Shown here one piece after another: positions 1-58,724 of a DNA stretch of 64,000 nucleotides. Below the pieces are notes generated by a model. That model did not search any database. It was not told the DNA's origin and saw only the letters and a list, made by a program, of their open reading frames with translations. Numbering within the stretch: the stretch's first letter is position 1; every line of letters starts with the position of its first letter. A program made the position numbers and the translations under genes. The stretch comes from an uncultured Spirochaetia bacterium (GTDB taxonomy: Bacteria > Spirochaetota > JAHITG01 > CAZBCL01): assembly GCA_964490645.1 (NCBI GenBank), contig CAZBCL010000001.1:7659-71658 (forward strand). Reading direction: 5' to 3'.

Positions 1-676
1 TATTTGCTTCAGTAGTTTTCCCGATAAGACGATATGCCGCCGCAAGAAAGAACCGCACTTTCTGATTTTGCGGCATTAGGCGATACGCTTTCTCAAGGTG
101 AACAATACCGTCGGTCTGTTCCCCTGCATCCAATAATGTCAACCCCCAATAATAATGACAGTCTGCATGATCCGGCATGTGTTTATGTGCTTCCTGAAAT
201 AATTTCAGCGCTGATATTTGATCTTTCTGACTTGCATATATCCTTCCAAGATGTATTAAAACAGGAATATATCTCGGGTTCTCCTGATGAAGTTTTTTAA
301 ATACAATAAAGGCATCACGGATTTTATTCACACTTAAATCAATAAGCCCCAACCGCTCCATGATCACTGAACGGGATACCTTTGAGCTGAGAATATTATG
401 CTTTAGCATTGTCTGATAAACCCGTTTTGCACTGTCAAACGCTTTCGATCGTTCATACAGTTCCGCCAATCGCAACGGGTAATCAGCATTGCGCGGACGT
501 AAGGCAACTAATTTTTTTGCTTCAATAATAGCATTAATAAAATCCTTATTCTTTTCATACTCATTTAGTTTACGTTTATAGCGATCTTCACGCCCGCCAA
601 GTATATGCAGTGTAACCGCAATACCGGTGAGTATAACCGCGCCGGAGATTAACAATGCTAATACCATACCGCTCAT
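1..676 (-). CDS. TPR-repeat protein with N-terminal transmembrane anchor; partial, C-terminus lies beyond the window start
   Basis: Reverse-strand ATG at 676..674. The frame stays open to position 1 (not in the ORF track because no stop lies in the window). Translation begins MSGMVLALLISGAVILTGIAV (hydrophobic anchor) and continues with helical TPR-like repeats (LAELYERSKAFDSAKRVYQTML..., ISALKLFQEAHKHMPDHADCHYYWGLTLLDAG...). Confidence 0.5.
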   Translation of the reverse strand, partial: MSGMVLALLISGAVILTGIAVTLHILGGREDRYKRKLNEYEKNKDFINAIIEAKKLVALRPRNADYPLRLAELYERSKAFDSAKRVYQTMLKHNILSSKVSRSVIMERLGLIDLSVNKIRDAFIVFKKLHQENPRYIPVLIHLGRIYASQKDQISALKLFQEAHKHMPDHADCHYYWGLTLLDAGEQTDGIVHLEKAYRLMPQNQKVRFFLAAAYRLIGKTTEAN

Positions 677-42646: not shown

Positions 42647-43008
42647 TAGTGAATACGGAGTATAAGCCGAATTCTGTCGTGGATCATCATTAATCTAGGA
42701 TGATTGTTGCCAATCACCTCATGCACCCTACCCGGGGTATCACGACGGGCAGCCGTGTATGTATAATACATATCCCCTGCTTGGGCTTGCTCCGAATGAG
42801 GTTTACCCTGCCGATGATGTTGCCATCAAAGCGGTGCGCTCTTACCGCACCATTTCACCCTTACCTGCAAAGCATAGGCGGTTTATTTTCTGCGGCACTG
42901 TCTGTAACGTGTGCACGTTCCCGGGAATTACCCGGCATCCTGCCCTGCGGAGTTCGGACTTTCCTCCATTATGTAATGTACATAACGGCGATGATCTCTC
43001 CGTATCCA
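42646..43008 (-). ncRNA. rnpB: RNase P RNA, bacterial type A
   Basis: The reverse complement shows the universally conserved elements: P4 5' strand GGAGGAAAGTCCGAACTCCGCAGGGCAGGATGCCGGGTAA; GGTAAGGGTGAAATGGTGCGGTAAGAGCGCACCG; GGTAAACCTCATTCGGAGCAAGCCCAAGCAGGGG; CCCGGGTAGGGTGCATGAGG; and the 3' CTAGATTAATGATGATCCACGACAGAATTCGGCTTATA. P1 pairing runs GGATACGGAG/CTCCGTATTC, and P3 is the hairpin TTATGTACATTACATAA. Confidence 0.88.
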
Positions 43009-43215: not shown

Positions 43216-45201
43216 ATGACAGAAAAAAAACCACTTATACGTTTGTTTTCATATATCCGTGGACATATCCCACGGCTTATTGCGACCGTCTTTATTATCA
43301 TGCTTATTGGCACTTTTGAAGGAATCACGGTTATCGGAATTGAACGCATTGCATATGTTTTTGAAAAAGTCGGTCAGCAGGTTCAAAACCATACCCGTCC
43401 TGAAATTAATCTTCGTTTTGTTCTGCCGAAACCGTCCCCCCCGCATATTCCGGGACTTGATAATGATAGTGCGCCCCCCCCCTCAACCAATAGCTTTTCT
43501 ACTGATGTACAAACTGCTATTGCCATAATGGATGAAAAAGTTTCCGCTATGATTGGTCCGAAACCGGAAATATTGAAGTTTTCATTTCGACCGGTGCCCA
43601 CGTTTAATGCTATCGGCAAAAAGAATGTTATTTCCATGCTGTTTATTATTGCAGGCTTTTTATTAATTGTCTTTTTTATTAAAAACTTTTTTTGGTACGG
43701 CAAGGATTATTTATCCCAATCGGTTGGTCATAAAATACTCCGCACTATCCGCAAGCAATTACATGATAAATTAATCACCTTACCGATGCGTTTTTTTGAT
43801 GCAACAAAAACCGGCGAGCTGCAATCACGCATTACCAATGATGTACAGACAGTGCAAAATATTATTGTAACCATAACAAACTTTTCGACAAATATTCTTA
43901 AAAGTCTTATTTATTTCGGATTAATGCTTTCGTTTTCCATTGAATTATCAATTATCGCCATTGCAATGGCGCTTGTTTTTGTACCGGTAATCAATCGCTT
44001 TGCAAAACCGCTTCGACGTGCAAATCAGAAAGTACTCGAAAATATTGGAGATGTTACCAGTTATTTGCAGGAAACCATTCTCGGTATTAAAGTGCTTAAA
44101 ATTTTTAATAAGGAAACCGATGAACGAGAGTTCTTCCATCAACTTACCTATAGTACCTATGCCCGTTCAATGCGCACTGTACGATTGAATGCAATACAAC
44201 AGCCGCTTGTACAGTTCATCGGAGAATTTGCTATTGTTACCCTTCTTGCTTTAACCGGCTACCTTATTATATCAAGTGATATGACAATATCACGGCTTAT
44301 TGGTTTTGTTAGTTGTGTAACACTTGGTTTCCAGCCCTTACAACAGCTTGGAAAAGTAAATACCGCGCTGCAAAGCGCCGGCAGTGCCAGTACGAGATTT
44401 TTTGAGTTAATGGATATGGAGCCCGAAAAAAATGTTATCGGTACTCCGCATATTCCTGAAACAATTTACGGTCATATACAATTTGAGAATGTCAGCTTCA
44501 GTTATGATAATCAAAACACTATTCTCAGCAATATTTCAATTAATGCCAACCCCGATCAAATCATTGCCATTGTCGGTCCAAGTGGTTCCGGAAAAACAAC
44601 TCTGGTCAATCTTATTCCCCGATTTTATGAAATCAGTCATGGCACGATAACCCTTGACGGGTGTGATATTCGCAGCATTCCTCTAACGACATTGCGCAAA
44701 TACATCGCTCTTGTTCCACAAGAAAGTATCTTATTCTCCGGAAGTATTGCCGATAATATTCGCTATGGTAAACTAAACGCTTCGGAATATGAATTAGCAA
44801 CTGCAGCGAAAGCCGCCAATGCACATAATTTCATTACCGCTCTTCCCAACGGATATGCAACAGAAATTGGCGAACGGGGGGTACAGCTTTCCGGAGGTCA
44901 ACAGCAACGTATCTCAATTGCGCGTGCAATATTAAAAGACCCGCGAATTCTTATTCTTGATGAAGCGACCAGTGCACTTGATACGGAATCAGAATTACTT
45001 GTCCAACAAGCGTTGAATAATCTTATGCAGGGTCGTACAACATTTGTGATTGCACACCGGCTTTCCACAATAAAACATGCGGATCGTATTATCGTTATTG
45101 ACGATGGTAAAAAAGTTCAGGAAGGAACACATACCGAACTGCTCCAACGTCCGGGATTGTATGCCGAATTGATTAAAAAACAATTTGTTTTGAACCAATA
45201 G
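43216..45201 (+). CDS. ABC transporter permease/ATPase fusion (MsbA-like type I exporter) with an enlarged TM1-TM2 periplasmic loop
   Basis: 6-TM domain plus NBD (Walker A GPSGSGKTT, signature LSGGQQQRISIARA, Walker B ILILDEATSALD). Roughly 110-aa hydrophilic Pro-rich segment between TM1 and TM2 (…KPSPPHIPGLDNDSAPPPSTNSF…). Confidence 0.85.
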   Translation: MTEKKPLIRLFSYIRGHIPRLIATVFIIMLIGTFEGITVIGIERIAYVFEKVGQQVQNHTRPEINLRFVLPKPSPPHIPGLDNDSAPPPSTNSFSTDVQTAIAIMDEKVSAMIGPKPEILKFSFRPVPTFNAIGKKNVISMLFIIAGFLLIVFFIKNFFWYGKDYLSQSVGHKILRTIRKQLHDKLITLPMRFFDATKTGELQSRITNDVQTVQNIIVTITNFSTNILKSLIYFGLMLSFSIELSIIAIAMALVFVPVINRFAKPLRRANQKVLENIGDVTSYLQETILGIKVLKIFNKETDEREFFHQLTYSTYARSMRTVRLNAIQQPLVQFIGEFAIVTLLALTGYLIISSDMTISRLIGFVSCVTLGFQPLQQLGKVNTALQSAGSASTRFFELMDMEPEKNVIGTPHIPETIYGHIQFENVSFSYDNQNTILSNISINANPDQIIAIVGPSGSGKTTLVNLIPRFYEISHGTITLDGCDIRSIPLTTLRKYIALVPQESILFSGSIADNIRYGKLNASEYELATAAKAANAHNFITALPNGYATEIGERGVQLSGGQQQRISIARAILKDPRILILDEATSALDTESELLVQQALNNLMQGRTTFVIAHRLSTIKHADRIIVIDDGKKVQEGTHTELLQRPGLYAELIKKQFVLNQ

Positions 45202-45239: not shown

Positions 45240-46226
45240 ATGCGTGTCGTAAAACGTAAAGAAAAGTTAAACCTGCTGATTACCGGTGCTGCCGGTTATT
45301 TTGCATCACGGTATATACAATCAGTACTCCGCGATCCTGATAATCGTCATAATATGATACTCATTGATGACCTCACGAACGCCGGCAGAGAATCTGTTCC
45401 GCAAGGAGCACCTTTTTTCCAAATCGGTTTAAATGATCGTCGTAAAATGACTGAACTTTTTCTTGATTATCAATTTGACGCAGTGATCCACTTCGCCGGA
45501 TATGCGGATGGACAGAATTCTTTTGCTGATCCGGTATATGATGCAATGAAAAATGTCCTCGGATCACTCAACTTGCTTGAACAATGTAAAGAACAGCAAG
45601 TCCCGAAATTTATTTATATTTCAACAACTGATGTATACGGGTTAACCCATAAAGCCGTTACTGACAGTTCCTGGCCACATCCGATATCACCGCATGCTGC
45701 ATCAAAATTCGCCATTGAACAATATCTGCCCATTTATCAGCAAAATTATGATATGGATTTTTGGGTTTTACGATTTGGCTCATTGTACGGATATGGCCAG
45801 CAAAAAAATGATTCCGTTATTGCTTCAATCATGTATCAGATCCTCACTGAAAAGCACGTCTCTCTCTTTGGCAATGATGAAACAAAATATGATTTATTAT
45901 TTATTGATGATGCTATTTTTGCCGTTAATCTTGCACTCTTTACCGAGCAGCCGCATATCTTTATTGGCGATCGTTCATTACATGTTATAAATATTGTCAG
46001 CGGTGAGTCAGTCTCCAGTACTGTTCTCTATCAAAAAATTGCACAATATATGGACTGCTCGATCATACCAACATACACAGAATCCAAACATCCAATTCCA
46101 TCAAGAGATATTGACAATAATTGGGCGCGAACTATTCTCGGATGGAAACCGAATGTTACGCTTGATGACGGTATACTCAGAACCCTTGAATGGATTCGAC
46201 AGCATGCGGTAAAGAAAGAAAAATGA
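45240..46226 (+). CDS. NAD-dependent epimerase/dehydratase (extended SDR) with non-canonical active site
   Basis: Rossmann motif ITGAAGYFAS and GalE-like layout. The YxxxK motif reads PHAASK (His at the catalytic Tyr position, codon CAT 45693-45695). Confidence 0.7.
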   Translation: MRVVKRKEKLNLLITGAAGYFASRYIQSVLRDPDNRHNMILIDDLTNAGRESVPQGAPFFQIGLNDRRKMTELFLDYQFDAVIHFAGYADGQNSFADPVYDAMKNVLGSLNLLEQCKEQQVPKFIYISTTDVYGLTHKAVTDSSWPHPISPHAASKFAIEQYLPIYQQNYDMDFWVLRFGSLYGYGQQKNDSVIASIMYQILTEKHVSLFGNDETKYDLLFIDDAIFAVNLALFTEQPHIFIGDRSLHVINIVSGESVSSTVLYQKIAQYMDCSIIPTYTESKHPIPSRDIDNNWARTILGWKPNVTLDDGILRTLEWIRQHAVKKEK

Positions 46227-46245: not shown

Positions 46246-47040
46246 ATGAATATTCAATTTGAAGACTTACATATCCATAGTCATATCAGTGATGATGCAT
46301 ACGGATCCATGCTTGAAAAAGCAGAAAAAGCACTCCAGTATGGATTTACGGCAATCGGATTTGCCGATCATTTAGAGATTAATTCCAACTGGGGATATGA
46401 TGTTGAAGAATACTTCAACGCTCTGAATGAAGTACGTCGTGTATTTGATAAACGCCTGCATATTTACAGCTCTGTTGAAATCGGCTTCACTGATAAACGA
46501 CTTCCACTCATACAAGAGCATTTACAACACTATCAGTATGATTATGTCATTGGATCAATTCATGCGATCAACGGCATTATCGCATCTGAAATGAAATCCG
46601 CGTATACCTCCCACGAACACATTATGAACATGTACCAACAATATTTTGATATGATTTATAAAACCGTTGCTTGTGGTCTTTTTGATATCATTGCACATAT
46701 AAACTTTATACGCCGCTGGATTCCCGAGGAGTTTCAAGCAATAGAGGTTTGGCATATTCCCGCCTTATCTCATCGCCTTGATATGATACTTGATCTTATT
46801 ATTGAAAAGAAAAGCATTCTTGAAATCAATTGCGCTTCATTGCGGAAAGGATATTCCTATACTCTTCCTGAAGAAGAAATTATCGCACGCTATGCGCAAC
46901 GCGGCGGCACATTAGTTTCCTATGCATCCGATACGCATATACCGGATGATATCGGAACGGGTATTGAAGTATATAGCTCTCTTCTCGCGCGCTATAATCT
47001 TACTTCATACTCCCCCCGCTCAATACCGGCGCGATTATGA
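46246..47040 (+). CDS. PHP-domain metal-dependent phosphoesterase (HisJ-like)
   Basis: N-terminal LHIHSHISDD His-cluster, ADHLE, and later His/Asp ligands (GSIHAING…IAHINF). 264 aa. Confidence 0.6.
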   Translation: MNIQFEDLHIHSHISDDAYGSMLEKAEKALQYGFTAIGFADHLEINSNWGYDVEEYFNALNEVRRVFDKRLHIYSSVEIGFTDKRLPLIQEHLQHYQYDYVIGSIHAINGIIASEMKSAYTSHEHIMNMYQQYFDMIYKTVACGLFDIIAHINFIRRWIPEEFQAIEVWHIPALSHRLDMILDLIIEKKSILEINCASLRKGYSYTLPEEEIIARYAQRGGTLVSYASDTHIPDDIGTGIEVYSSLLARYNLTSYSPRSIPARL

Positions 47041-48140
47041 TGCTGAACATTATTCATATTGATACCGGCATTACATGGCGTGGAGGTCAAAAACAAGTTT
47101 CCCTGCTCTGCCGCTATTTACAGTCAAAACAATACAATATTCATCTCATCGTTAATCCGCATAGTGCATTAGCTGAATACGCCCGCAAACACAGTATCCC
47201 ATTCACTACAATTGCAATGCCGTGTGAATATACACCGAACGCAATACGACAAATAAAAAAAATAATTGCCGCATTTAATGCGAATATTGTCCATTTACAT
47301 GATAGCCGTGCCCATACACTCGGCAGTATTGCAGCACGGCGCGCCGGTGTTCCTGTTATTATTGTATCACGTCGTGTTATATTTCCGCCCAAGGGGTGGC
47401 CGTTCAAAAAATTAAAATATACGTTGCCGACGCATTATATTGCTGTTTCCACTGCCGTACAAAAAGTCCTGCAGCACAGCGGCGTTCTTCATAATAATAT
47501 AACGACAATATACAGCGGCATCGACATTCAATCACAAACAAATAACACAAACAATATACCGGTGCAGCGAACAACGTTCGGATTATCAAATACTGATTTT
47601 GTTGTCGGTTCAATTGGTGCACTCACACAAGAAAAAGATACTCTAACATTACTGAAAGCAGGGGCATTACTGAAAACAGCGATTCCGAATCTGCGTATTA
47701 TCATTATCGGGGATGGTAAAGAACGAAAACATCTTGAAGAAACAACACGACAGCTTGGCATACCATCAATGGTTTCTTTTTTAGGTTTTCGTAATGATAT
47801 ACATGCTATTTATCAAATAATAAATTGCTTCGTTACGTGCAGTATACAGGAAGGACTTGGCAATACCGTGCTTGAAGCAGCTCTCCATGCACTTCCAATT
47901 ATCGCAACACGGACGGGAGGTATTCCTGAAATAGTACAACACCAAAAAACAGGATTACTGTTCAACCCCGGTGATGTCGATACTCTCGCTGCTTATATTT
48001 CCTATATCAACACTCATCCGACAGCAGCACATACATTCGGCAATGCTGCATATGATTCTATTACAGCACGCTTTGATTATCATATAACTGGTGCACAAAC
48101 GGCTGCCCTGTATACGCAACTCCTGAACAATACTATCTAA
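47037..48140 (+). CDS. GT4-family (GT-B fold) glycosyltransferase
   Basis: C-terminal EX7E-type motif region (SIQEGLGNTVLEAALHALPIIATRTGGIPEIV). 367 aa. 4-nt overlap with the PHP gene. Confidence 0.75.
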   Translation: MMLNIIHIDTGITWRGGQKQVSLLCRYLQSKQYNIHLIVNPHSALAEYARKHSIPFTTIAMPCEYTPNAIRQIKKIIAAFNANIVHLHDSRAHTLGSIAARRAGVPVIIVSRRVIFPPKGWPFKKLKYTLPTHYIAVSTAVQKVLQHSGVLHNNITTIYSGIDIQSQTNNTNNIPVQRTTFGLSNTDFVVGSIGALTQEKDTLTLLKAGALLKTAIPNLRIIIIGDGKERKHLEETTRQLGIPSMVSFLGFRNDIHAIYQIINCFVTCSIQEGLGNTVLEAALHALPIIATRTGGIPEIVQHQKTGLLFNPGDVDTLAAYISYINTHPTAAHTFGNAAYDSITARFDYHITGAQTAALYTQLLNNTI

Positions 48141-49575
48141 CTGTTTCTTTTTTTAATATTGCGATTATTCGTTCCATGATTTTTTTTAACCCCTGTATAT
48201 TCCAGCGCCAGTCAAATATACGTATTTTACTCACTAAATACCAAAACCGCAGCACTAGTTTTCTATACACCACTGTACGGGCTTCTATTAAATCTTCTTT
48301 ACTCATTGCTTCAGTACGCACCACCGGTTCTGGATATAATGAAGAATATTTTGTCCAATCTTCCGTTAATAAATATCCATTCTCTTTATACCAATGATAA
48401 TTCGGCGTATTCGGAAGTGGTGTCGAAAAACAAAACTGCGTATAAAATGGATTGATTTCTTTAATAAAAGTTATTGTTTGATGTACCGTATCCCATGTTT
48501 CTCCGGGCAATCCAATAATACACATACCGTAAAACAGCACCCCTTCCCGTCTGCATAATTCCGCTGCACGCCTAATATCATCTTTCGAAACTCCTTTTCG
48601 GGTGCGTTCAAGAACCTGCTCGGCACCTGATTCTATACCGAATGCAATTTCTTCACATCCGGCACGTTTCATTAATTTTAATTGCTCGGCAGTCAATAAA
48701 TCCGCTCGTGTGCAGCATGACCATTTTAGGTTCAATTTTTCTTCAATCATTAACCGACAAATATTTTCAAGACGCCCTTTTTTTAATCCCATGACATCAT
48801 CAAAAAAAAGAAACGTTTTAAGTCCATGCACTGTAATGAGCCTTTTTAATTCATTGACAACTCGTTGAGGGCTGTATGTGCGATATTTATTTTTTCGATA
48901 TGCGCAAAATTGGCAGCCGTACGGACATCCGCGTGATGTTTGTACCGTTGCAAACGGTGATTCCAAAACACCGGTATGATACGGTTGTAATGTCGGTAAT
49001 AAATGCCACGCCGGCAATGCTGTTTCATCTAAATGCTCCGGATATTCCGGCTGCTTTGTTATCCGCAGCGTACCTGCTGCATCACGAACGGCAATTCCCG
49101 CTGTATGCAGATCCCCTGCCGATGCGTTATTTTTTAGATCCGCTAATAATGAAACAATAATTGCATCCGGTTCGGTCATTAGAAAGATATCAACTGCCGG
49201 ATATGTTTGCATGTATTGCTGCAATACAAATTGCGCTTCAGCAATAACTTTGCAGCGTGTAATCGTTATTGCCCCGCATTCCTGTTTTGCATATTCAATA
49301 ACCGCATAGTCATATGGCTGACAATCAAAAGCAATTCGCGTAATAACGACATCAGGATGGTATTCCTTCATTTTTTTAAAAACAGCTTCATTCGTGAGAT
49401 TAAATCCGTTCGCATCAAGAAATAACAATTCATACCCGGCTGCTTCAATTTCACCGGCCGTCTGCAACAATGAGAGCGGCGGATAACACGATCCGATATC
49501 ACGATGCTCAAAGCGTTCTTCCCGCACAACGGTACAACCGTCAACGCGTGGCGGATTAATAAGCATTACTTTCAT
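48133..49575 (-). CDS. B12-binding (class B) radical SAM enzyme
   Basis: N-terminal cobalamin-binding Rossmann-like region (MKVMLINPP…). Canonical CxxxCxxC (SRGCPYGCQFCAY). 480 aa. Confidence 0.8.
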   Translation of the reverse strand: MKVMLINPPRVDGCTVVREERFEHRDIGSCYPPLSLLQTAGEIEAAGYELLFLDANGFNLTNEAVFKKMKEYHPDVVITRIAFDCQPYDYAVIEYAKQECGAITITRCKVIAEAQFVLQQYMQTYPAVDIFLMTEPDAIIVSLLADLKNNASAGDLHTAGIAVRDAAGTLRITKQPEYPEHLDETALPAWHLLPTLQPYHTGVLESPFATVQTSRGCPYGCQFCAYRKNKYRTYSPQRVVNELKRLITVHGLKTFLFFDDVMGLKKGRLENICRLMIEEKLNLKWSCCTRADLLTAEQLKLMKRAGCEEIAFGIESGAEQVLERTRKGVSKDDIRRAAELCRREGVLFYGMCIIGLPGETWDTVHQTITFIKEINPFYTQFCFSTPLPNTPNYHWYKENGYLLTEDWTKYSSLYPEPVVRTEAMSKEDLIEARTVVYRKLVLRFWYLVSKIRIFDWRWNIQGLKKIMERIIAILKKETVR

Positions 49576-49579
49576 AAAA

Positions 49580-51139
49580 TTATACGTTCCCCTGATCGTC
49601 TTTTTTTATATCCGCAACAGTATGCTGTGCGGTATGGTCATAATCCTTCAAATGCCCGAATAGTGATCGCAGTCCGTATAATGCCTGCTTTATATCATCC
49701 CACGAGCGCAGAGTAAAAAACGATTTAATAATAAAAAGCGGATGCAGCATAATACGCCACATTTTCCGACACCAATAGGTTGTATCAACATCTGTTTTCA
49801 TAACCGCTTCTGCCTGATCAAAGCGGTCATAATTATGCGCATCAATACAAAAATAATCATTACGCAATGCATACCGATACAACGGCGTCCCCGGATAGGG
49901 CAACACAACACTTGATTGCAATGAATCCCCAAATTTTGTTCGATACAGCATCATTTCCTTTGTTGCCAGCCATGTTTTCCGTGCTCCTTCACGAGTTTCC
50001 CACGGATAGCCAACCATCGTCGTCAGCAACACTACCATACCATGACGTTTTGCACGTTTCACCCCGTCAATTATTTCTTCGATCGTTTCATCCTTTTGTA
50101 ATCGCACTAAGGTTTCATTACTGCCGGATTCAACACCGATTTTTAACAATCGTGTCCCAATACGTTCACAGAGCGTACACATTTCCTCATCAAGGTTATC
50201 ACCCCGAGCATTCGTTGAGAAGGCAACCTTACCGTATAAACCGCGGCTTTCAAATTCATCAGCGAACGCCCGCATCCATTCTTTATTCCATACGGGACCG
50301 TCTTCATTATCATCAAACACTTCGACAACACCATACTTCTTATAGAGCATTTCAATTTCATCAACAACATCCTTAACCGGGCGCATACGAGCGGTATTCC
50401 GCCAGAAAGAATGCTGCCAAATACAAAATGTACAGCGCCCTGCCAGTGTCGAACCATATTTTTCTTTTTTTGCTTTGCTGCCGTCAATAGGATTTCGCCC
50501 CCCGCATCCGCGTCCGGTTAAAATATACGCACAGGGATGCTGCAAATATGCTTCACCGTAATTATACCATTGTGTTAAATCGCGATCAATTTGCGGTGAT
50601 GTTGAGAGATCATATAATGCTGCGCAGCCGGTTGTCTGCATAGCGTTGTTTTCAAACCAATACACGCCGCCGGGACGCGCAGAACGTGATCCGGTTTCAA
50701 ATTCCAATAATTCCGATATAATAAAATCATAATCCCCTCCGACAATAACATAGTCAGGGTTTGAACGCTCAAAGTTTTCTTCAGTTTTATACCATAAATG
50801 ATCACCAACTAATATCAGCCGAGCATCAGTTTGTTTCTTTAATTTCGGGATATAATCCCAATGCATGGTAATCAAGGGAGTTTTCGTTTCCATTACAATC
50901 CAATCAGGATTAAATGAACGTAAACGGTTCTCATAATCATCCCACTGAATACGTGCATTGATCGCATCAAGCCAGAGGACCTCATGTCCTTGTTTTTTTA
51001 ACATGGTTGCCAGATATGCCATCACCAATGGAAAAATACGAACTTCCAGTGATTTACTAAACTTTGTCTGCCGATTCTGTGATAATAACGGAAACGCATT
51101 ATCACGCATAAAAGGCGGGTAGATAAGAGCAATTTTCAT
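49580..51139 (-). CDS. B12-binding (class B) radical SAM enzyme with a roughly 20-aa insertion inside the cluster-binding Cys motif
   Basis: N-terminal B12-binding-like region (MKIALIYPPF…VLWLDA). The Cys motif reads GRGC-GGRNPIDGSKAKKEKYGSTLAGR-CTFC (Cx23Cx2C) at 50423-50506, confirmed by translating the DNA. Confidence 0.65.
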   Translation of the reverse strand: MKIALIYPPFMRDNAFPLLSQNRQTKFSKSLEVRIFPLVMAYLATMLKKQGHEVLWLDAINARIQWDDYENRLRSFNPDWIVMETKTPLITMHWDYIPKLKKQTDARLILVGDHLWYKTEENFERSNPDYVIVGGDYDFIISELLEFETGSRSARPGGVYWFENNAMQTTGCAALYDLSTSPQIDRDLTQWYNYGEAYLQHPCAYILTGRGCGGRNPIDGSKAKKEKYGSTLAGRCTFCIWQHSFWRNTARMRPVKDVVDEIEMLYKKYGVVEVFDDNEDGPVWNKEWMRAFADEFESRGLYGKVAFSTNARGDNLDEEMCTLCERIGTRLLKIGVESGSNETLVRLQKDETIEEIIDGVKRAKRHGMVVLLTTMVGYPWETREGARKTWLATKEMMLYRTKFGDSLQSSVVLPYPGTPLYRYALRNDYFCIDAHNYDRFDQAEAVMKTDVDTTYWCRKMWRIMLHPLFIIKSFFTLRSWDDIKQALYGLRSLFGHLKDYDHTAQHTVADIKKDDQGNV

Positions 51140-51147
51140 GGGCTTTC

Positions 51148-53211
51148 CTAAATAAATCGTTCCAGTGCAGTATATCCGACTGCAGCTAATAATACGGCAA
51201 TAAGTGTTAATCCGGTATTCACCACCCCATCACCAAGCATAACTTTCTTTCCCCATCGTGCACCAATGTAGCTTTCAGCAAATACCGCACCATGGACAGC
51301 AAGTAAAACAATTAATGCTGCTATTATATCATTGCCATAAAAATAATTACGTATAACTGCAACAGCAAGAATAATTCCTATTACGATTAAACCGCCAAAC
51401 ATTCCATCAGCAGAAAGCGCCCCTTCCTGTTCACCGGCACATGGCCGTAATCTGTATGCACTGATATAAATATGATCATGACGAATTCCTAATCGGCCGA
51501 TACGCCCCTGTGCAAAATCAAGTAATGCTGCTCCGAATGCTGCAATAAATAAAAACCGTACATATGAAATAGAAACATTAAAAACACTCATCGCGCTTAA
51601 AAACAATGGAATTACCATATAGGCGGAAAACCGATGAAGATTACCGACATGATAATCAGCACCATGTGTTGTCGAACGTAAAAGCGCCAATCCTTTCAGT
51701 TTGAGGACTCCCTTTACAAACGCATTGATAATCATAATAAACAAGTTTACCGTATGAATACCATAGGCAATAAAAATCGCACAATACCACGGTTGATTAA
51801 ACCGTCCATTCTCTTCTTCAAACACACCGCGATCAATTATATTCATCGCGACATACATCAGGGTAAACATCCCCCAACCGCGTCGTCCGATTCCATGAAG
51901 AATAATAATATTAATTATATATAAACCCAGCAGTCGCCGCAATGACACCATATCATATAAAAAATATAACAATAACAATGCCGGAATCCAAAGCACGATA
52001 TGCACCAATTCCGGAGATGGTACATCAAATATCGGACGCATTAATGACGCTGCTAATGCACCAATAAAACCGACCAATGTTAAATGAACAACATCACTGA
52101 CGCCTTTAAACGGTATACTAAATAAAATGATAATCAGAAGTGTACTCATACATGCATACAGACAATGAAATGCTGCCACATCAGGCAGTATTTTTGTATA
52201 TAAGGTTCTGTATTTCATCCGTACCGGCGAGTACGATACATGCGAAGACGTTTTTGTATTCCCCGTATCCGGCATGCTTGCTGAATCAGCAGTCTGTTGA
52301 GAAGTATTAGGTGTTTTGGTTTTTTGTACAGCACGGGGAGTTAATATATGACTATATTTATGAAATAACCATGTACAATAAGCGACATTATAAAATGCAG
52401 GCTGCCCTTTTCCTTCATCAAACGCCTGCGGCGGTGTTCGTCCGGCATAAACACTATACCCCTGCACACCATTTGCGGATAAATACGGTGCATATACTTT
52501 TAACGGCAGTAACAGCATCCCAATAAATAATACACTGAATAGTATAACAGCGAACAATACCTGTTTTCGTTTTATTACAATATTCTGATGAGCAATACGG
52601 GCTGAAAATAATCGTCCCCCCGTATCCGGCAATATCCGAAAAACAAACCATCCGACTGTACTAACCATAAGAGCAGTAAAAAAAACAAGTGCCGGAACAA
52701 ATAATGCAGTACCCGCCATGATTACTGAATAAGATAATGAAAAGTTTGAAAACCACGCATCACTCTCGCGTGAAGTATTAATCCGTCCTGACTGAATCAA
52801 CGACAATATAACAACATTAAGTTGTGCGACTATTATTAATAGCAATATGCTGAAGCGTATTTCTTTGATAACATCAAGTGTTGTTTTCGCTAGAGCAAAT
52901 AAAAATCTATTCTGCAGTGTAGCGGCACTTTTTTCCAACGCTGTATGCCAGTGCGGATTAAACAAATATACGACAATACCTGCACCTGCTATGACTAAAC
53001 TAATATGTATTACTAAATAAATCGTCTCCCTTTTTAAAAAAGTCTTCGTTAGGATTTTACGTCGTGTACGAATTAAAATGACATGCGTTATACCAACAGC
53101 AATGGTTAATATCGCCGTCATAACCGGTGGCCCAACAAGCACATTCAGCAGCGGCAGCATATATAAAAGCCACCATATCTGAAATTTTTTATGTACAGGT
53201 CTATCGAGCAT
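51148..53211 (-). CDS. large polytopic integral membrane protein of unknown function
   Basis: 687 aa, more than 14 predicted TM segments, with a central hydrophilic Ser/Thr-rich loop (…KTPNTSQQTADSASMPDTGNTKTSSHVSY…). 11-nt overlap with the downstream gene. Confidence 0.45.
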   Translation of the reverse strand: MLDRPVHKKFQIWWLLYMLPLLNVLVGPPVMTAILTIAVGITHVILIRTRRKILTKTFLKRETIYLVIHISLVIAGAGIVVYLFNPHWHTALEKSAATLQNRFLFALAKTTLDVIKEIRFSILLLIIVAQLNVVILSLIQSGRINTSRESDAWFSNFSLSYSVIMAGTALFVPALVFFTALMVSTVGWFVFRILPDTGGRLFSARIAHQNIVIKRKQVLFAVILFSVLFIGMLLLPLKVYAPYLSANGVQGYSVYAGRTPPQAFDEGKGQPAFYNVAYCTWLFHKYSHILTPRAVQKTKTPNTSQQTADSASMPDTGNTKTSSHVSYSPVRMKYRTLYTKILPDVAAFHCLYACMSTLLIIILFSIPFKGVSDVVHLTLVGFIGALAASLMRPIFDVPSPELVHIVLWIPALLLLYFLYDMVSLRRLLGLYIINIIILHGIGRRGWGMFTLMYVAMNIIDRGVFEEENGRFNQPWYCAIFIAYGIHTVNLFIMIINAFVKGVLKLKGLALLRSTTHGADYHVGNLHRFSAYMVIPLFLSAMSVFNVSISYVRFLFIAAFGAALLDFAQGRIGRLGIRHDHIYISAYRLRPCAGEQEGALSADGMFGGLIVIGIILAVAVIRNYFYGNDIIAALIVLLAVHGAVFAESYIGARWGKKVMLGDGVVNTGLTLIAVLLAAVGYTALERFI

Positions 53212-54346
53212 TTTTTTCCTTATATAATAAAAGCAGTCCGCCTAACAATGAGACGAACACCAATGCGACATGACTGATAAACATAATTAAAATACCATTT
53301 ACTTCACTGATGCCAAAATGCGTCAGCACTGATTTTCCGATAAATTCACGCACCCCAATCCCATTCACCGATATCGGCGGCGCCGAGGTAAATCCGACAA
53401 TTGGAATAACAAAGAAAAAACTACGCAATTCAATAGATTGAATAAATAACGCCCGTGCAACTAAATAATTCATCAGTATACGAACCCCCTGACTTGCCAG
53501 ACTCATTAATCCTATCTGAGCAAGAAACCGCTTTTTACGAAACAGATACATTGATTGTATAAACTTTATAACAACACTCTTTAATTTCCCTTTTTTCAAT
53601 AATCCTGCAAGTGCCATAAACCACTTCTTACTCGGACCGATTAAATAAACAATCCCCCCGATACACGTCATCGCCGCAATACCAAATATCAATACGCTCC
53701 ATTTCTCAACAACCGGTGTATCCCAATATAATAAGCATGAAACAACTATTAAAATAAGCCCGAGACTGCAAAAATGAAATACGCGGTCAACGATAATACC
53801 GGCAGCAATTGTCTCCCCATGATGTTTTTTACGCCCTAACATAACACCTTTAACTAAATCCCCCCCTATTGAACCGGGAAGAACATTATTAAAAAATAAT
53901 CCAATAAAATAATAGCGTATTCCATCCCACAGCGTAACCTTAATTTTACTAAACCGCAGTAATAAAAACCATTGTACTGATGCAATAAGCATGGAAATAA
54001 AATAAACGAATACGCCGATAAAAAACAGTCCGAAATCAAACCGTTCCAAACGTAGTGCAATTAAATCAATACCGCGTATTCGATATACTGTTTCCGGATC
54101 TCCGGCATCAGTATTCCGCGTTATTACTTCGTATTTAATTGTTTCAGTATCTATTCGTTCCTGCAGTGTCGGCCAGTCATCTTTAATACTGTCAGCATTA
54201 ATTTCTTCTTTATTATCAATAATACCAAACCAGACCACAACAATCATTGCAGCAATACTTACGGTAAATTGTACTACCGTCCAGAACATACGTTTTTTAT
54301 TATTATTCCGCTTTGTCATAAGACATTTCCGTATATGAAATAACAT
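53201..54346 (-). CDS. flippase-like TM-domain protein (UPF0104 / LPG-synthase-TM family)
   Basis: Roughly 8 TM segments. Conserved C-terminal motif of the family (PISVNGIGVREFIG). 381 aa. Confidence 0.5.
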   Translation of the reverse strand: MLFHIRKCLMTKRNNNKKRMFWTVVQFTVSIAAMIVVVWFGIIDNKEEINADSIKDDWPTLQERIDTETIKYEVITRNTDAGDPETVYRIRGIDLIALRLERFDFGLFFIGVFVYFISMLIASVQWFLLLRFSKIKVTLWDGIRYYFIGLFFNNVLPGSIGGDLVKGVMLGRKKHHGETIAAGIIVDRVFHFCSLGLILIVVSCLLYWDTPVVEKWSVLIFGIAAMTCIGGIVYLIGPSKKWFMALAGLLKKGKLKSVVIKFIQSMYLFRKKRFLAQIGLMSLASQGVRILMNYLVARALFIQSIELRSFFFVIPIVGFTSAPPISVNGIGVREFIGKSVLTHFGISEVNGILIMFISHVALVFVSLLGGLLLLYKEKNAR

Positions 54347-54424: not shown

Positions 54425-55627
54425 TTATTGAATCGGTTTTTCATATGCACGGAAAGTCATCCATACACCGGTACTAAACGGTTCAACCCCCCGCCGCATC
54501 GGTATATTTGATTCTAATATCCATGACAGCTCACCTTCTTTGATATTGTGTTTTTTCCCTGCTTCATATAATTTTTCAATTAACGGAGCTTCCAACCCGC
54601 GTTTTTGAAATTTCTTTTTAATGCCCATGAGCAGACAACGACTGCGATTGTAGCTTTTCGCAACCTTGAGCCCCCAGAGTAATTTAATAATACCAAACGG
54701 GAGAAGCCGTCCGTTAATTTTTGACTGCACTTCATTCAGATCGGGCAGTGCCATAATAAAGCCGGCAACTTCATTATTCACAAAGACAAACCAAATAAAA
54801 TCCTCTTCAACCAGCATTTTTAAGTCTTTGCCTTCATGATCAAACTCTTCTTTTGTCCATGCAACCGTCCCCCAATTTGTTTCCCATGCATCACAATGAA
54901 TTTCCCAAACATATTCTATTAATTCATCCCATTGCTTCAGATCACCGCGTCGGTATTCTATCCGGCCGGATTTACGTTCAAGCCGCTGTTCAACCAATCG
55001 TGCAACACGCCGAACACGATCCGATATTCCTTTTTCCATATCAAGATGATATGAATATAAATCCTGTGCTTTGGTCATTGCATACTGCGTACATAATTCA
55101 TTATAATACGGCGGGTTATGCGGCATCATAACCATCGGCATTATCTCATATCCCGCCGGATAATCCGCCCCCCCATCGCATTTCATACCAAAGGTATCAT
55201 TGATGGTAAAACTATATGGTCCGAGCATTCGTTTCATCCCTTTTTGTTTTAACCAATCCTGCGCACGATTGAATAATGCCTCCGCAACCGCCTGATCATT
55301 AATACATTCAAACCATCCCCAAAATCCGGTACTATCATTAAATGTTTCAAGATGACCATGGTATATTTGTGCGGTAATACGACCAACGACTTCACCATCG
55401 CGTTCAGCAATAAATGCCTGAAAATCAATGCGTTTTAATTTGACATTTATCTTAGTATTAAACTTATCCATTACATCAATAATCAGTGGCGGACACCATG
55501 CTTTCGCCCATGGTTTTGCACGGTTCTCTTTCGAGCGATAAATTTTCCATGGAAATAATACAAACTTCTTTTTAAACACGCCGGGGGTTGCCATACGATC
55601 AATAGGGATAATGTTAATGTTGCTCAT
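54425..55627 (-). CDS. hypothetical protein, possible dual GNAT-fold acyl/aminoacyl-transferase
   Basis: 400 aa soluble protein. The C-terminal region has a GNAT motif-A-like segment (KKKFQKRGLEAPLIEKLYEAG) and a VAGFIMALPD beta-strand. Assignment is tentative. Confidence 0.3.
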   Translation of the reverse strand: MSNINIIPIDRMATPGVFKKKFVLFPWKIYRSKENRAKPWAKAWCPPLIIDVMDKFNTKINVKLKRIDFQAFIAERDGEVVGRITAQIYHGHLETFNDSTGFWGWFECINDQAVAEALFNRAQDWLKQKGMKRMLGPYSFTINDTFGMKCDGGADYPAGYEIMPMVMMPHNPPYYNELCTQYAMTKAQDLYSYHLDMEKGISDRVRRVARLVEQRLERKSGRIEYRRGDLKQWDELIEYVWEIHCDAWETNWGTVAWTKEEFDHEGKDLKMLVEEDFIWFVFVNNEVAGFIMALPDLNEVQSKINGRLLPFGIIKLLWGLKVAKSYNRSRCLLMGIKKKFQKRGLEAPLIEKLYEAGKKHNIKEGELSWILESNIPMRRGVEPFSTGVWMTFRAYEKPIQ

Positions 55628-55702
55628 ATACGGTCTCCTAAATTATTTTATCATAATATACTAACTGACTTTATCGATACAATAAAGCCACTCATGCTGA
55701 TA

Positions 55703-56890
55703 TTAAATAATACCGAGTTTTTTCCCAAATGTTTTAAATGTATCCAGCAAATAATCAAGCTGCTCATCAGTATGATTCGCCATATAACTGGTCCGAATAA
55801 GACAGCGTCCTTCCGGTACGCCGGGCGGAACAACCGGATTAATAAAAACCCCGGCTTCGGAAAGCGCTTTTGATAATTCAAATGTTTTTTCCAGTGGTCC
55901 GATGACAAGCGGAATAATCGGAGTTTCTGCCGTACCGGTTTCATAACCAAGCATTTTAAATTCATTAAGCATACGATGAGTAATTTCCCATAAGCGTTCA
56001 ATCCGTTCAGGTTCTTTCAGCATAATATCCAACGCAGCATCAACCGCAGCAACACTTGCCGGCGGCATTGAAGCACTAAAAATAAGCGCCCGACTTCTAT
56101 GCTTTAAATATTCAATGATATTCTTTGAGCCGGCAACAAAACCGCCTAATGAAGCAAATGACTTGCTGAATGTCCCCATAATAAGACTAACTTCGGTATC
56201 CAAACCGAAATGATTCGCGGTTCCGCGTCCGTTTTTCCCAAGAACCCCCAATGAATGAGCGTCATCAACATAAACATATGTATTATTAAATTTCTTTGCA
56301 AGTGCAACAATTTCAGGAAGTTTCGCAATATCACCTTCCATTGAGAATACGCCGTCAACAACAATAAGCTTACCGGCTTCTTCGGGAGCGTTTTTCAACT
56401 TCATTTCAAGGTCGGTCATATCATTATGCTTAAAGCGCCACGTTTTACCAAATGCAAGGCGCGTTGCATCAATGATTGAGGCATGGTCAAGAGCATCAAT
56501 GAGTATATAATCTTTCGGACCGATAACCGGAGCAATAGCACCAAGATTTGATTGAAACCCGGTTGAAAATAAAAGCGCATCTTCCTGATGTGTAAACTCA
56601 GCTAAACGCTGCTCAAGCTTTTCATGAATATCAAGTGTCCCGTTTAAAAATCGTGACCCGGCATTCCCGGTGCCATATTTTTCAATCGCTTTAATTGCCG
56701 CTTCTTTTACCCGCGGATCATTGGTTAATCCGAGATAACTGTTTGATCCGAACATAAGGTATTTTTTACCGTCAATATATACTTCAGTATCCTGTTCCGA
56801 TTCAATTGGTCGAAAATACGGATAGATTCCTATTTGACGAAGCTCCTCGGCTTGTGTAAACTCACGACATTTATCCCAAAGATCTGGCAT
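55703..56890 (-). CDS. PLP-dependent alpha-oxoamine synthase, serine-palmitoyltransferase-like
   Basis: Fold-type I AOS family: HASIIDA, DDAHSLGVLG, and PLP-lysine motif GTFSKSFASLGGFVAG (the TFSKS form is typical of Spt-like members rather than Kbl/BioF). Confidence 0.75.
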   Translation of the reverse strand: MPDLWDKCREFTQAEELRQIGIYPYFRPIESEQDTEVYIDGKKYLMFGSNSYLGLTNDPRVKEAAIKAIEKYGTGNAGSRFLNGTLDIHEKLEQRLAEFTHQEDALLFSTGFQSNLGAIAPVIGPKDYILIDALDHASIIDATRLAFGKTWRFKHNDMTDLEMKLKNAPEEAGKLIVVDGVFSMEGDIAKLPEIVALAKKFNNTYVYVDDAHSLGVLGKNGRGTANHFGLDTEVSLIMGTFSKSFASLGGFVAGSKNIIEYLKHRSRALIFSASMPPASVAAVDAALDIMLKEPERIERLWEITHRMLNEFKMLGYETGTAETPIIPLVIGPLEKTFELSKALSEAGVFINPVVPPGVPEGRCLIRTSYMANHTDEQLDYLLDTFKTFGKKLGII

Positions 56891-56955: not shown

Positions 56956-57963
56956 TTATTGTTCAACAATGGTTTCGTCAATTGCAATACCAAAATGACG
57001 TGCTTGTTTTTCAACATATCCCAGCACTTTAGAACCACAGCGAAGTTGTACAACCGATATTGGTTCACCTTTTGGTGTTGTTAAGCGTATTGTTTCAGCA
57101 TTCTGCAACACGATTGAACACGGCATTTTTGAACGAACCTCAACCGCATCAACAACTAATAGCGGACGCTTCTCAACTTTTGAACGTCCGACATATGCCG
57201 TTATTGATTTTCCGGTATGATCGGTAATTAAAACAGGATCACCGGATTTTAATTCGCCAAGATACCGCGTCGTGCCGCCCGGCGCATGAAAATATGCATG
57301 TACCGCGCCCGCATTTATCCGAAACGGACGTGCAGCGACATACGGGTTGTCAATATTTTCTGCATGAACAAGAAACATCCCCTTACTTGAATTGCCAACC
57401 AGCATCCCCTGACTACCCGTTAAATTTGAACAGGTGTCAACACAAACACGATCGCCAATTCCGATTGTTGTTACTTTTGTAATACGTAATGTTTTCAGGT
57501 TAAATTTCATTGCTGATAATGACGTAATAAATGAAACTGATTTTTTTATTATTGCCGGATCAGTCGTTTCTAACACAATCCCTGCAACACCGGTTTCAAG
57601 AATTTCTGCAGCTAATTTTACGTCTTTATACGTCCGTGCAAATGTGTACAAGGTTTCTCCGGCTGCTGCAATAAGATTCTCTAACGGAATAATACTCCAG
57701 TCGGTTGTACGTACAACAACGATTTTTTTTCGTAAAACCCGTGCAGCTTCCTGTTCATCTTTTTTATTTTTTATTACACGAATATCAACATCCGTAGGAA
57801 TTTTTAAATCGCCGGATGATGGCGCAATAACCGTAATACGACCAAGCTGGCGAACTTTTGACACCAGCTCTTTCGTCGTCATTATTGCATCAATACCGGA
57901 TTCTAACGCTGTGGTAACTGCTTTTTTATTCCATATCGGCAGATTCAGCCAAATTTTCTTCAT
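56956..57963 (-). CDS. 3-dehydroquinate synthase II (archaeal-type AroB')
   Basis: 335 aa. N-terminal [28 protein letters not shown]… resembles the DHQS-II (PF01959) family. Overlaps the upstream DhnA-type aldolase by 4 nt. Confidence 0.55.
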
Positions 57964-58724
57964 GTATTCTCTCCATGAACAATATCAGCAATCATGCGTA
58001 CTATTTCCTTCACATTATCATGCTGAAAAACATTGCGTCCGATTGAACATCCTGCCCCACCGGCTGCAATAGCACTTTTAATCATTGTCAATAATTCCTC
58101 GTCAGTTTCCATTTTCTCACCGCCGGCAATAACCACCGGAATAGGACAGCCCTCAACTACTTCACGAAATGATTCAGTTGAACCCGTATAATTAACTTTT
58201 ACAATATCCGCACCAAGCTCTGCACCAACACGTGCAGCATGTTTCACAACAGCGGCATCATATTCATTTTTAATTTTTTTGCCGCGTGTATACATCATCG
58301 CAATAAGCGGCATCCCCCACATCATACACGATCGGCTGACTTTCCCCATATCATGAAGCATTTCAGCTTCAGTATCAGCACCAAGATTCACATGTACTGA
58401 TACTGCATCAGCTCCTAAGCAAACCGCTTCTTCAACTGAACACACCATTGTTTTCGCATTCGGGTCACCCGACAATGAAGTACTGGCTGATAAATGAACA
58501 ATAAGACCAATATCACGCCCATGATTACGATGCCCGCTTTTCACCAGCCCTTTATGCATAAGAATTGCATTGACGCCGCTATTTGCAATGGTATCAACAG
58601 TATTTTGAATATCAATTAAACCGTGAATCGGACCAAGCGTAACCCCGTGATCAATGGGGACAATAATCGTCCGGTTATTATTTCGATTTAAAATACGTTC
58701 AATACGTATTTCTTTACCTATCAT
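57960..58724 (-). CDS. DhnA-type class I aldolase, likely 2-amino-3,7-dideoxy-D-threo-hept-6-ulosonate synthase (AroA')
   Basis: 254 aa with DeoC/LacD-family motifs ([13 protein letters not shown]…, [20 protein letters not shown]). Pairing with the DHQS-II gene favours AroA' over a glycolytic FBA. Confidence 0.55.

Follow-up and report, generated by a model that had tools for sequence, protein, structure and literature searches.

A radical SAM protein with an extended cysteine spacer in its predicted cluster-binding motif belongs to a large uncharacterized family

rSAM1 is a 519-amino-acid (aa) predicted radical S-adenosylmethionine (SAM) protein encoded in a 64,000-nucleotide stretch of DNA (the window) from an uncultured Spirochaetia bacterium (assembly GCA_964490645.1, contig CAZBCL010000001.1, positions 7,659 to 71,658 of the forward strand). 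The three cysteines predicted to hold its [4Fe-4S] cluster are spaced C-x23-C-x2-C. As judged from alignments, rSAM1 is not alone in this: spacers of x8 to x29 characterize its whole family, which counts more than 1,000 clusters. Radical SAM enzymes are generally recognized and annotated by the usual cluster motif, C-x3-C-x2-C (CxxxCxxC); the rSAM1 family never uses it despite a class B-like architecture.

An extended cluster motif shared by all close homologs of rSAM1

The gene and its parts are as follows (positions are those of the window).

49580..51139, minus strand: rSAM1 gene, 519-aa radical SAM protein with a B12-binding-like N-terminal domain (open reading frame [ORF], Pfam, AlphaFold2, Foldseek)
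50423..50506, minus strand: cluster-binding motif C212-x23-C236-x2-C239 (GRGC-x23-CTFC), from the translation
50435..50503, minus strand: 23-residue insert G213-R235, GGRNPIDGSKAKKEKYGSTLAGR, with conserved ends and a variable, flexible centre (loop comparison)
50690..51139, minus strand: N-terminal Rossmann-like (B12-binding-like) domain, residues ~1-150, with invariant G112-D113-H114 (alternating strand and helix in DSSP of the AlphaFold2 model, weak Pfam match, invariant columns)
49820..50542, minus strand: radical SAM partial TIM-barrel core, residues ~200-440 (Pfam, AlphaFold2 secondary structure, PDB profile hits to MgmA, AprD4 and RimO)

The rSAM1 ORF is intact, and its translation reads ...PCAYILTGRGC-GGRNPIDGSKAKKEKYGSTLAGR-CTFCIWQHSF..., with C212 encoded at 50504-50506 and C239 at 50423-50425. 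An initial annotation of this DNA, made from the letters alone, had reported a Cx23Cx2C spacing in the 519-aa protein at 50423-50506. Translation bears out a spacer of 23 residues, and those coordinates bracket the motif exactly. In an alignment of 50 sequences, C212, C236 and C239 are the only invariant cysteines of rSAM1, and the counterparts of all three are kept in 120/120 homologs. Assignment of these residues as the ligands predicted to hold the SAM-cleaving [4Fe-4S] cluster is strongly supported by this conservation.

A protein search against 5.8 billion proteins returned 1202 hits at E<=1e-5, and loops were surveyed in the best 120 of these, which are full-length and 46-64% identical to rSAM1. 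They come from Kiritimatiellia, Spirochaetes, Poribacteria, Chloroflexi, Goldbacteria, Desantisbacteria and Woese-/Nanoarchaeota. The initial annotation had left open whether homologs carry the insertion; all 120 read GRGC-x(8..29)-CxFC, and x3 occurs in none. Spacer lengths were distributed as follows.

n = 8: 6 proteins
n = 9: 36 proteins
n = 10: 30 proteins
n = 17: 13 proteins
n = 18-22: 9 proteins
n = 23: 1 protein, the query
n = 26: 18 proteins
n = 27-29: 7 proteins

When one genome per species was considered, the loci carried x8-10 (45 loci), x12 (14), x15, x17 (5), x22, x26 (4) and x29; locus L040, in a metagenome-assembled genome of the culturable Brevinema andersonii, has an x22 ortholog. 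Spacer length is constant inside each clade. rSAM1 shares with the other members of this unnamed GRGC-x(8-29)-CxFC-WQH family more than 45% full-length identity, the extended spacer and the invariant blocks YGEAYL, GDH, FDDNE and GYPWE. The source annotations of the homologs are generic. Comparison of the homologs shows a genuine, inherited insertion with a set length in each clade.

Because homopolymer runs lie in this DNA, wrong run lengths could have produced a false frame in place of a true CxxxCxxC protein, as the initial annotation had cautioned. An A7 run is indeed present, at 50465-50471; the supposed G7 run is actually six bases long (C6 on the plus strand, at 50498-50503). Both the G6 and the A7 run fall inside insert-coding DNA, the former encoding the conserved GG of GRGCGG and the latter lying mid-insert. 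The frame is nevertheless conserved on both flanks: GRGCGGRNP before the runs and GSTLAGRCTFCIWQH after them both agree with homologs when read in one frame, and either of the others yields stops or nonsense. Further, the gene is base-for-base identical in ENA ERZ27262693 (with one single-nucleotide polymorphism in the flank) and in Logan SRR8439058, and all 120 homologs have extended loops, the nearest with x27-29. These data refute the artefact, whose probability we regard as negligible. An insertion specific to this strain was likewise ruled out, since the extended spacer is common to the whole family.

Position and origin of the insertion

The family profile aligns with the solved structure of MgmA/QCMT as 'rGC------PGNCTFC', with the gap immediately after the first cysteine (Cys1). 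The second half of the canonical loop, PGxCTFC, is kept and reads AGRCTFC in rSAM1. Since the extra residues directly follow Cys1, matches to Pfam and most NCBIfam models do not start before residues 233-235, at Cys2, and those to HpnJ and BchE are split in two. Motif-based screens and hidden Markov model starts thus miss Cys1, a warning for annotation. The ends of the insert are conserved (GGxN... at the start, ...[ST]xL[PA]GR at the end). Long loops in general open with GG[ASP]N and close with [aromatic/hydrophobic]-x-[ST]-[ST]-x-P-G-x-C, and differ in between. In this family, the canonical C-PGx-C-xF-C loop has thus been opened directly after Cys1 with its PGxCTFC half kept, and 5 to 26 extra residues bulge out where barrel strand beta-1 ends, ahead of the retained half.

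Sister clades were surveyed by a profile search of 1.84 billion representatives. Their loops read GRGC-YAK-CTFC and GRDC-PMK-CSFC (x3), GRDC-WWGK-CTFC (x4) and GRDC-WWRKDGG-CTFC (x7), and outside them lies the mass of canonical B12-type radical SAM proteins. In a neighbor-joining tree calculated with the loop columns masked and without bootstrap support, all proteins with x>=8 were monophyletic, and all 46 long-loop proteins (x>=17) fell inside one 51-leaf clade. rSAM1 was sister to five Kiritimatiellia proteins with x27-29. Strict monophyly of the long loops was not obtained: five x9 proteins join the 51-leaf clade, with a branch length of 0.003. Together, the clades provide a natural series (x3, x4, x7, x8-10, x12, x17, x20 and x26-29) for testing loop tolerance and access of a reductant or partner.

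Inteins were found exactly inside the radical SAM cysteine motif of five sister-clade relatives outside the window (P0127, P0129, P0130, P0133 and P0131). Four of these have an Intein_splicing and a LAGLIDADG endonuclease domain; P0129 has the splicing domain only. The intein lies at the third cysteine in four relatives (GRDCWYGKCTF/C...N/CVW) and at the first in P0131, whose spliced motif would be CX18CX2C. Inteins thus occupy the same motif in a sister clade, and the loop was considered as a degenerate intein remnant; this origin was rejected, the loops being far too short and having no intein blocks. Four other sister-clade proteins (P0136, P0142, P0144 and P0163) have lost the cluster cysteines despite good full-length scores (e.g. 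ARGSLYNSYNSVSS) and may be pseudo-enzymes. Among short-loop family members, P0039, P0077, P0078, P0084, P0089 and P0105, several of them from DPANN archaea, have an extra cysteine in the loop. They read GRGC-GSET-C-GARG-CTFC (C-x4-C-x4-C-x2-C), which makes the identity of the first ligand ambiguous.

Predicted fold and closest known systems

The AlphaFold2 model of rSAM1, built from the 50-sequence alignment, has a mean predicted local distance difference test (pLDDT) score of 91.2 and a predicted template modelling score (pTM) of 0.91. It comprises a Rossmann-like N-terminal domain of ~150 residues, a radical SAM barrel and a helical C-terminal domain. The three cysteines lie between strands 203-206/209-211 and helix 240-244. 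pLDDT falls below 50 only at residues 221-225 (SKAKK, the loop tip) and in the C-terminal tail, so the tip is predicted to be flexible and the remainder is confident. DSSP assigns a single bridge residue at position 229 of the model, a hint that the loop is anchored in its C-terminal part.

Pfam Radical_SAM (PF04055) matches residues 234-384 with 50.7 bits against a cutoff of 29.5. The Pfam B12-binding match (residues 33-134) scores 28.2 bits, below the cutoff of 32.1; a precomputed PF02310 match is present in many rSAM1 homologs. Many radical SAM structures were matched by Foldseek at probability 1.00, the best in the PDB being AprD4 (E=3.7e-23, TMq 0.70), followed by MgmA (1.4e-21), TsrM, OxsB, CysS and TokK. 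The class B assignment of the initial annotation is borne out only at the level of the fold, with the qualifications that the Pfam B12-binding score is below threshold and that the nearest structure, AprD4, binds no cobalamin. None of the curated NCBIfam models came near its cutoff for rSAM1. Overall, rSAM1 is likely to be a functional radical SAM enzyme with B12-domain architecture and a member of a large uncharacterized family, as sequence and model together indicate.

AprD4 (PDB 6FD2), the radical SAM 1,2-diol dehydratase of apramycin biosynthesis, has the same succession of Rossmann-like N-terminal domain, radical SAM barrel and C-terminal domain, and its substrate is a sugar. It is only 17-18% identical to rSAM1, however, has a canonical CX3CX2C motif and contains no cobalamin. 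Its NCBIfam model (NF033070) gives rSAM1 45.8 bits against a cutoff of 500; the likeness is structural only. The best PDB sequence-profile hit was MgmA/QCMT (PDB 9CCB; E=1.1e-14, query residues 110-386), the B12-dependent glutamine C-methyltransferase of methyl-coenzyme M reductase. The PGxCTFC half of the loop is common to both, and the alignment covers part of the N-terminal domain and the radical SAM core. MgmA differs in its x3 spacer (HRGC-PGN-CTFC) and its protein substrate, and rSAM1 scores 60 bits with its model TIGR04014 (cutoff 360). Among curated families, HpnJ (TIGR03471; 106.1 bits) and BchE (TIGR02026; 99.4 bits) matched best, with respective cutoffs of 577.6 and 481.35 that lie far above these scores. 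Neither hopanoid nor bacteriochlorophyll genes adjoin rSAM1.

An extended loop between Cys1 and Cys2 has been described for QueE of Burkholderia multivorans (CX14CX2C), in agreement with the upper limit of about 14 quoted for QueE in the initial annotation. QueE belongs to another radical SAM subgroup, lacks a B12-like domain and has a loop of 14 residues versus 23-29; the relationship is one of analogy, not homology. Flavodoxin specificity, and even a moonlighting function, have been linked to variable elements that surround the QueE cluster. The spacing variants catalogued by RadicalSAM.org run from CX4 to CX11, such as the Elp3-like Megacluster-2-4-1 with CX11; none is in the B12-binding megacluster 2-1 and none goes beyond x11. 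A 2026 review of B12-type radical SAM enzymes describes only canonical CXXXCXXC, from which rSAM1 departs with x23 and its family with x8-29. No paper on x17-x29 spacings in radical SAM enzymes was found, and a search for CX12-CX26 gave only ferredoxin and GATA zinc-finger papers. The documented range of the cluster loop is thus extended beyond CX11 (catalogues) and CX14 (QueE), the longest found in the literature. The spacer of rSAM1 is among the longest by that standard, as had been proposed; its closest relatives, with x27-29, exceed it.

Gene neighborhood in the window and across related loci

The genes around rSAM1 in the window are listed below.

48133..49575, minus strand: rSAM2, 480-aa B12-type radical SAM protein with canonical SRGCPYGCQFC, 4 nt downstream of rSAM1
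51148..53211, minus strand: 687-aa polytopic membrane protein, an orphan, 8 nt upstream of rSAM1
53201..54346, minus strand: flippase-like membrane protein LPG_synthase_TM (Pfam PF03706, 110.8 bits; TIGR00374), overlapping the start of the 687-aa gene
54425-56890, minus strand: BioF/Kbl-family acyltransferase (serine palmitoyltransferase [CFB type], 589 bits, cutoff 640), then a 400-aa tandem-GNAT protein
47037..48140, plus strand: GT4/GT1 glycosyltransferase, convergent with rSAM2 (Pfam Glycos_transf_1, 121.8 bits)
45240..46226, plus strand: NAD-dependent sugar epimerase/dehydratase (Pfam Epimerase, 155 bits)

The minus-strand order is LPG_synthase_TM, 687-aa protein, rSAM1 and rSAM2, with overlaps or gaps of 4-11 nt; the canonical SRGCPYGCQFC motif noted earlier for the neighboring ORF was found in rSAM2. 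The convergent plus-strand genes encode the GT4 glycosyltransferase, a PHP phosphatase, the sugar epimerase and an MsbA-like exporter. The 687-aa membrane protein had no Pfam or NCBIfam match and found only itself among the 5.8 billion proteins. The acyltransferase, the tandem-GNAT protein and the flippase-like protein may form a sphingolipid- or aminolipid-type module upstream of the radical SAM pair.

Gene context was counted across 80 species-representative loci.

Membrane glycosyltransferase family 2 (GT2): 32/80 loci
rSAM2 ortholog (>=440 bits, within 10 kb, mostly just downstream of the rSAM1 ortholog): 22/80 loci
Short-chain dehydrogenase/reductase (SDR) epimerase/dehydratase (in at least 21, the gene immediately upstream of the rSAM1 ortholog): 21/80 loci
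M23 peptidase: 17/80 loci
LPG_synthase_TM: 14/80 loci
DPM/ArnC-like GT2: 12/80 loci
GT1: 10/80 loci

In a Kiritimatiellia-like locus (L086), a GT1 gene follows the rSAM1-rSAM2 pair, and archaeal loci hold further B12-type radical SAM genes; loci inspected singly bore out the overall pattern. Five loci of the x26 clade (L002, L004, L005, L083 and L087) have a trio of Lactamase_B_2, a 400-423-aa protein with no Pfam family, and rSAM1; L003 and L006 have only the 400-423-aa protein upstream of rSAM1. Glycerolipid genes lie close by in two of these, namely PlsY, GpsA and PlsC in L087 and a patatin with LPG_synthase_TM in L083. Neither the 687-aa protein nor the 400-aa tandem-GNAT protein of the window is a counterpart of the 400-423-aa proteins; the first has no similarity to them and the second is unrelated. 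When the window's upstream proteins were compared with the 80+ loci by BLAST, the GNAT, Spt-like and 687-aa membrane proteins gave no match, and the flippase-like protein gave one weak match, in L083.

Proposed function of rSAM1 and role of the loop

A radical modification of a lipid-linked sugar is suggested for rSAM1 by analogy, because GT2, GT1, epimerase/dehydratase and flippase-like neighbors recur and because AprD4 and HpnJ are the nearest relatives. The neighborhood of the family follows a logic like that of polyprenyl-phosphate-sugar pathways or of HpnI/J/L, in which HpnJ acts in a context of a GT2 (HpnI), a flippase-like protein (HpnL) and a lipid-linked sugar; the sugar substrate of AprD4 also fits the glyco-gene context. 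From the recurrent neighbors, rSAM1 probably acts with the adjacent canonical rSAM2 on the sugar of a lipid-linked glycoconjugate or glycolipid. The association with glycosyltransferase, epimerase and flippase-like genes would then point to an undescribed radical reaction by which poorly studied phyla make envelope glycolipids or glycans.

From the model, the ends of the loop are probably packed, and the Lys-rich tip S221-K225 would be a flexible, solvent-exposed flap beside the cluster. By analogy with QueE, the flap may lie where flavodoxin or ferredoxin approaches as electron donor, or where the protein faces a membrane or a lipid-linked substrate. We tentatively propose, as a reading that is on the whole unlikely, that the expanded loop is a docking flap for a reductant, for rSAM2, or for the membrane or a lipid-linked substrate. 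Such a loop would define a widespread new subclass of B12-type radical SAM enzymes, hosted by bacterial candidate phyla, Spirochaetes, Kiritimatiellia, Chloroflexi and DPANN archaea, with an undescribed radical modification of lipid-linked sugars or glycolipids as its reaction.

Several observations weigh against the readings of function and loop given here. Cluster ligation, SAM cleavage and cobalamin binding are all inferred from sequence and model, and docking would be an indirect reading of the loop; reductant docking, membrane docking and a tolerated spacer are each possible. The neighborhood is heterogeneous, with the M23 peptidase in 17 loci and lineage-specific genes, and the window's own upstream genes are without detectable orthologs beside other family members. 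A scan for the ferredoxin-type motif CxxCxxCxxxC[P/A/G] alone found none encoded in the window. The net charge of the loop spans about 0 to +5.

Instead of a docking flap, the insert could be a tolerated, essentially neutral surface spacer whose length and sequence drift by lineage, a possibility that we take seriously while leaning against it. Orthologs that are about 50% identical have spacers of anywhere from 8 to 29 residues. The loop centre is low in complexity (G/P/S/N 40-50%) and in pLDDT and differs strongly between clades. Composition also follows genome G+C (GC) content: loops are K/N-rich at 28-40% GC and R/G/P/A-rich in the Kiritimatiellia sisters at 64.5% GC, and the rSAM1 window is at 38.9%. 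The insert of rSAM1 is Lys-rich, as noted initially, but this richness is in part a matter of genome GC, the 64.5% GC sisters being Arg/Gly/Pro-rich. Sequence identities within clades bear on both readings.

x26 clade: loop identity 0.68, rest of protein 0.70
x10 clade: loop identity 0.78, rest of protein 0.67
x17 clade: loop identity 0.44, rest of protein 0.64
x9 clade: loop identity 0.31, rest of protein 0.55

In the x9 and x17 clades the loop is less identical than the rest of the protein, as neutral drift would have it and counter to a docking role. In contrast, the loop is about as identical as the rest of the protein in the x26 clade and more so in the x10 clade, and length is strictly constant within clades (17 members at x26, 31 at x10 and 13 at x17). 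Reversion to x3 occurs in no family member among the 120 homologs and the species-representative loci, and the loop ends (GGxN, [aromatic]xSSxPG) are kept across all long-loop clades. These four observations argue against a neutral spacer.

A second alternative concerns the N-terminal domain. Like AprD4, rSAM1 could be a radical SAM enzyme that works without cobalamin (a sugar dehydratase or a rearranging enzyme, for example) and has an N-terminal domain that is only a Rossmann-like relic; we consider this somewhat unlikely. It would agree with AprD4 as the best Foldseek match, with the Pfam B12-binding score under the gathering threshold and with a sugar-metabolism context that fits a sugar-modifying reaction. 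According to the 2026 review, AprD4 itself has a B12-type domain and lacks cobalamin, yet clusters with B12-type radical SAM enzymes. On the other hand, the PDB profile search ranks the cobalamin enzyme MgmA/QCMT first, with an alignment that reaches the N-terminal domain, and HpnJ and BchE lead the NCBIfam hits. A functional domain is also favored by the invariance of G112-D113-H114, which lies where the fourth Rossmann-like strand (107-112) ends.

It is very improbable that the insert adds an extra metal ligand or second site (a fourth cluster ligand or an auxiliary metal): loop cysteines occur in some short-loop archaeal members and a few long loops, but the rSAM1 insert contains neither Cys nor His, and no ligand position in the loop is conserved across the family.

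Other features of the window

The region is rich in envelope-lipid genes, with two transporters in addition to the rSAM operon. These are the MsbA-like ABC exporter (43216-45201, plus strand; 506 bits, below cutoff) and an HpnN-like HAE3/RND lipid transporter (30771-33512, minus strand; 349 bits, below cutoff). At 56956-58724 on the minus strand, 3-dehydroquinate synthase II and 2-amino-3,7-dideoxy-D-threo-hept-6-ulosonate synthase are encoded, both above the NCBIfam cutoffs; they represent the archaeal-type aromatic amino acid route in an apparent bacterium. No tRNA genes were found in the 64-kb window. A full-length RNase P RNA of class A (bacterial) lies at 42647-43007 on the minus strand (298.8 bits).

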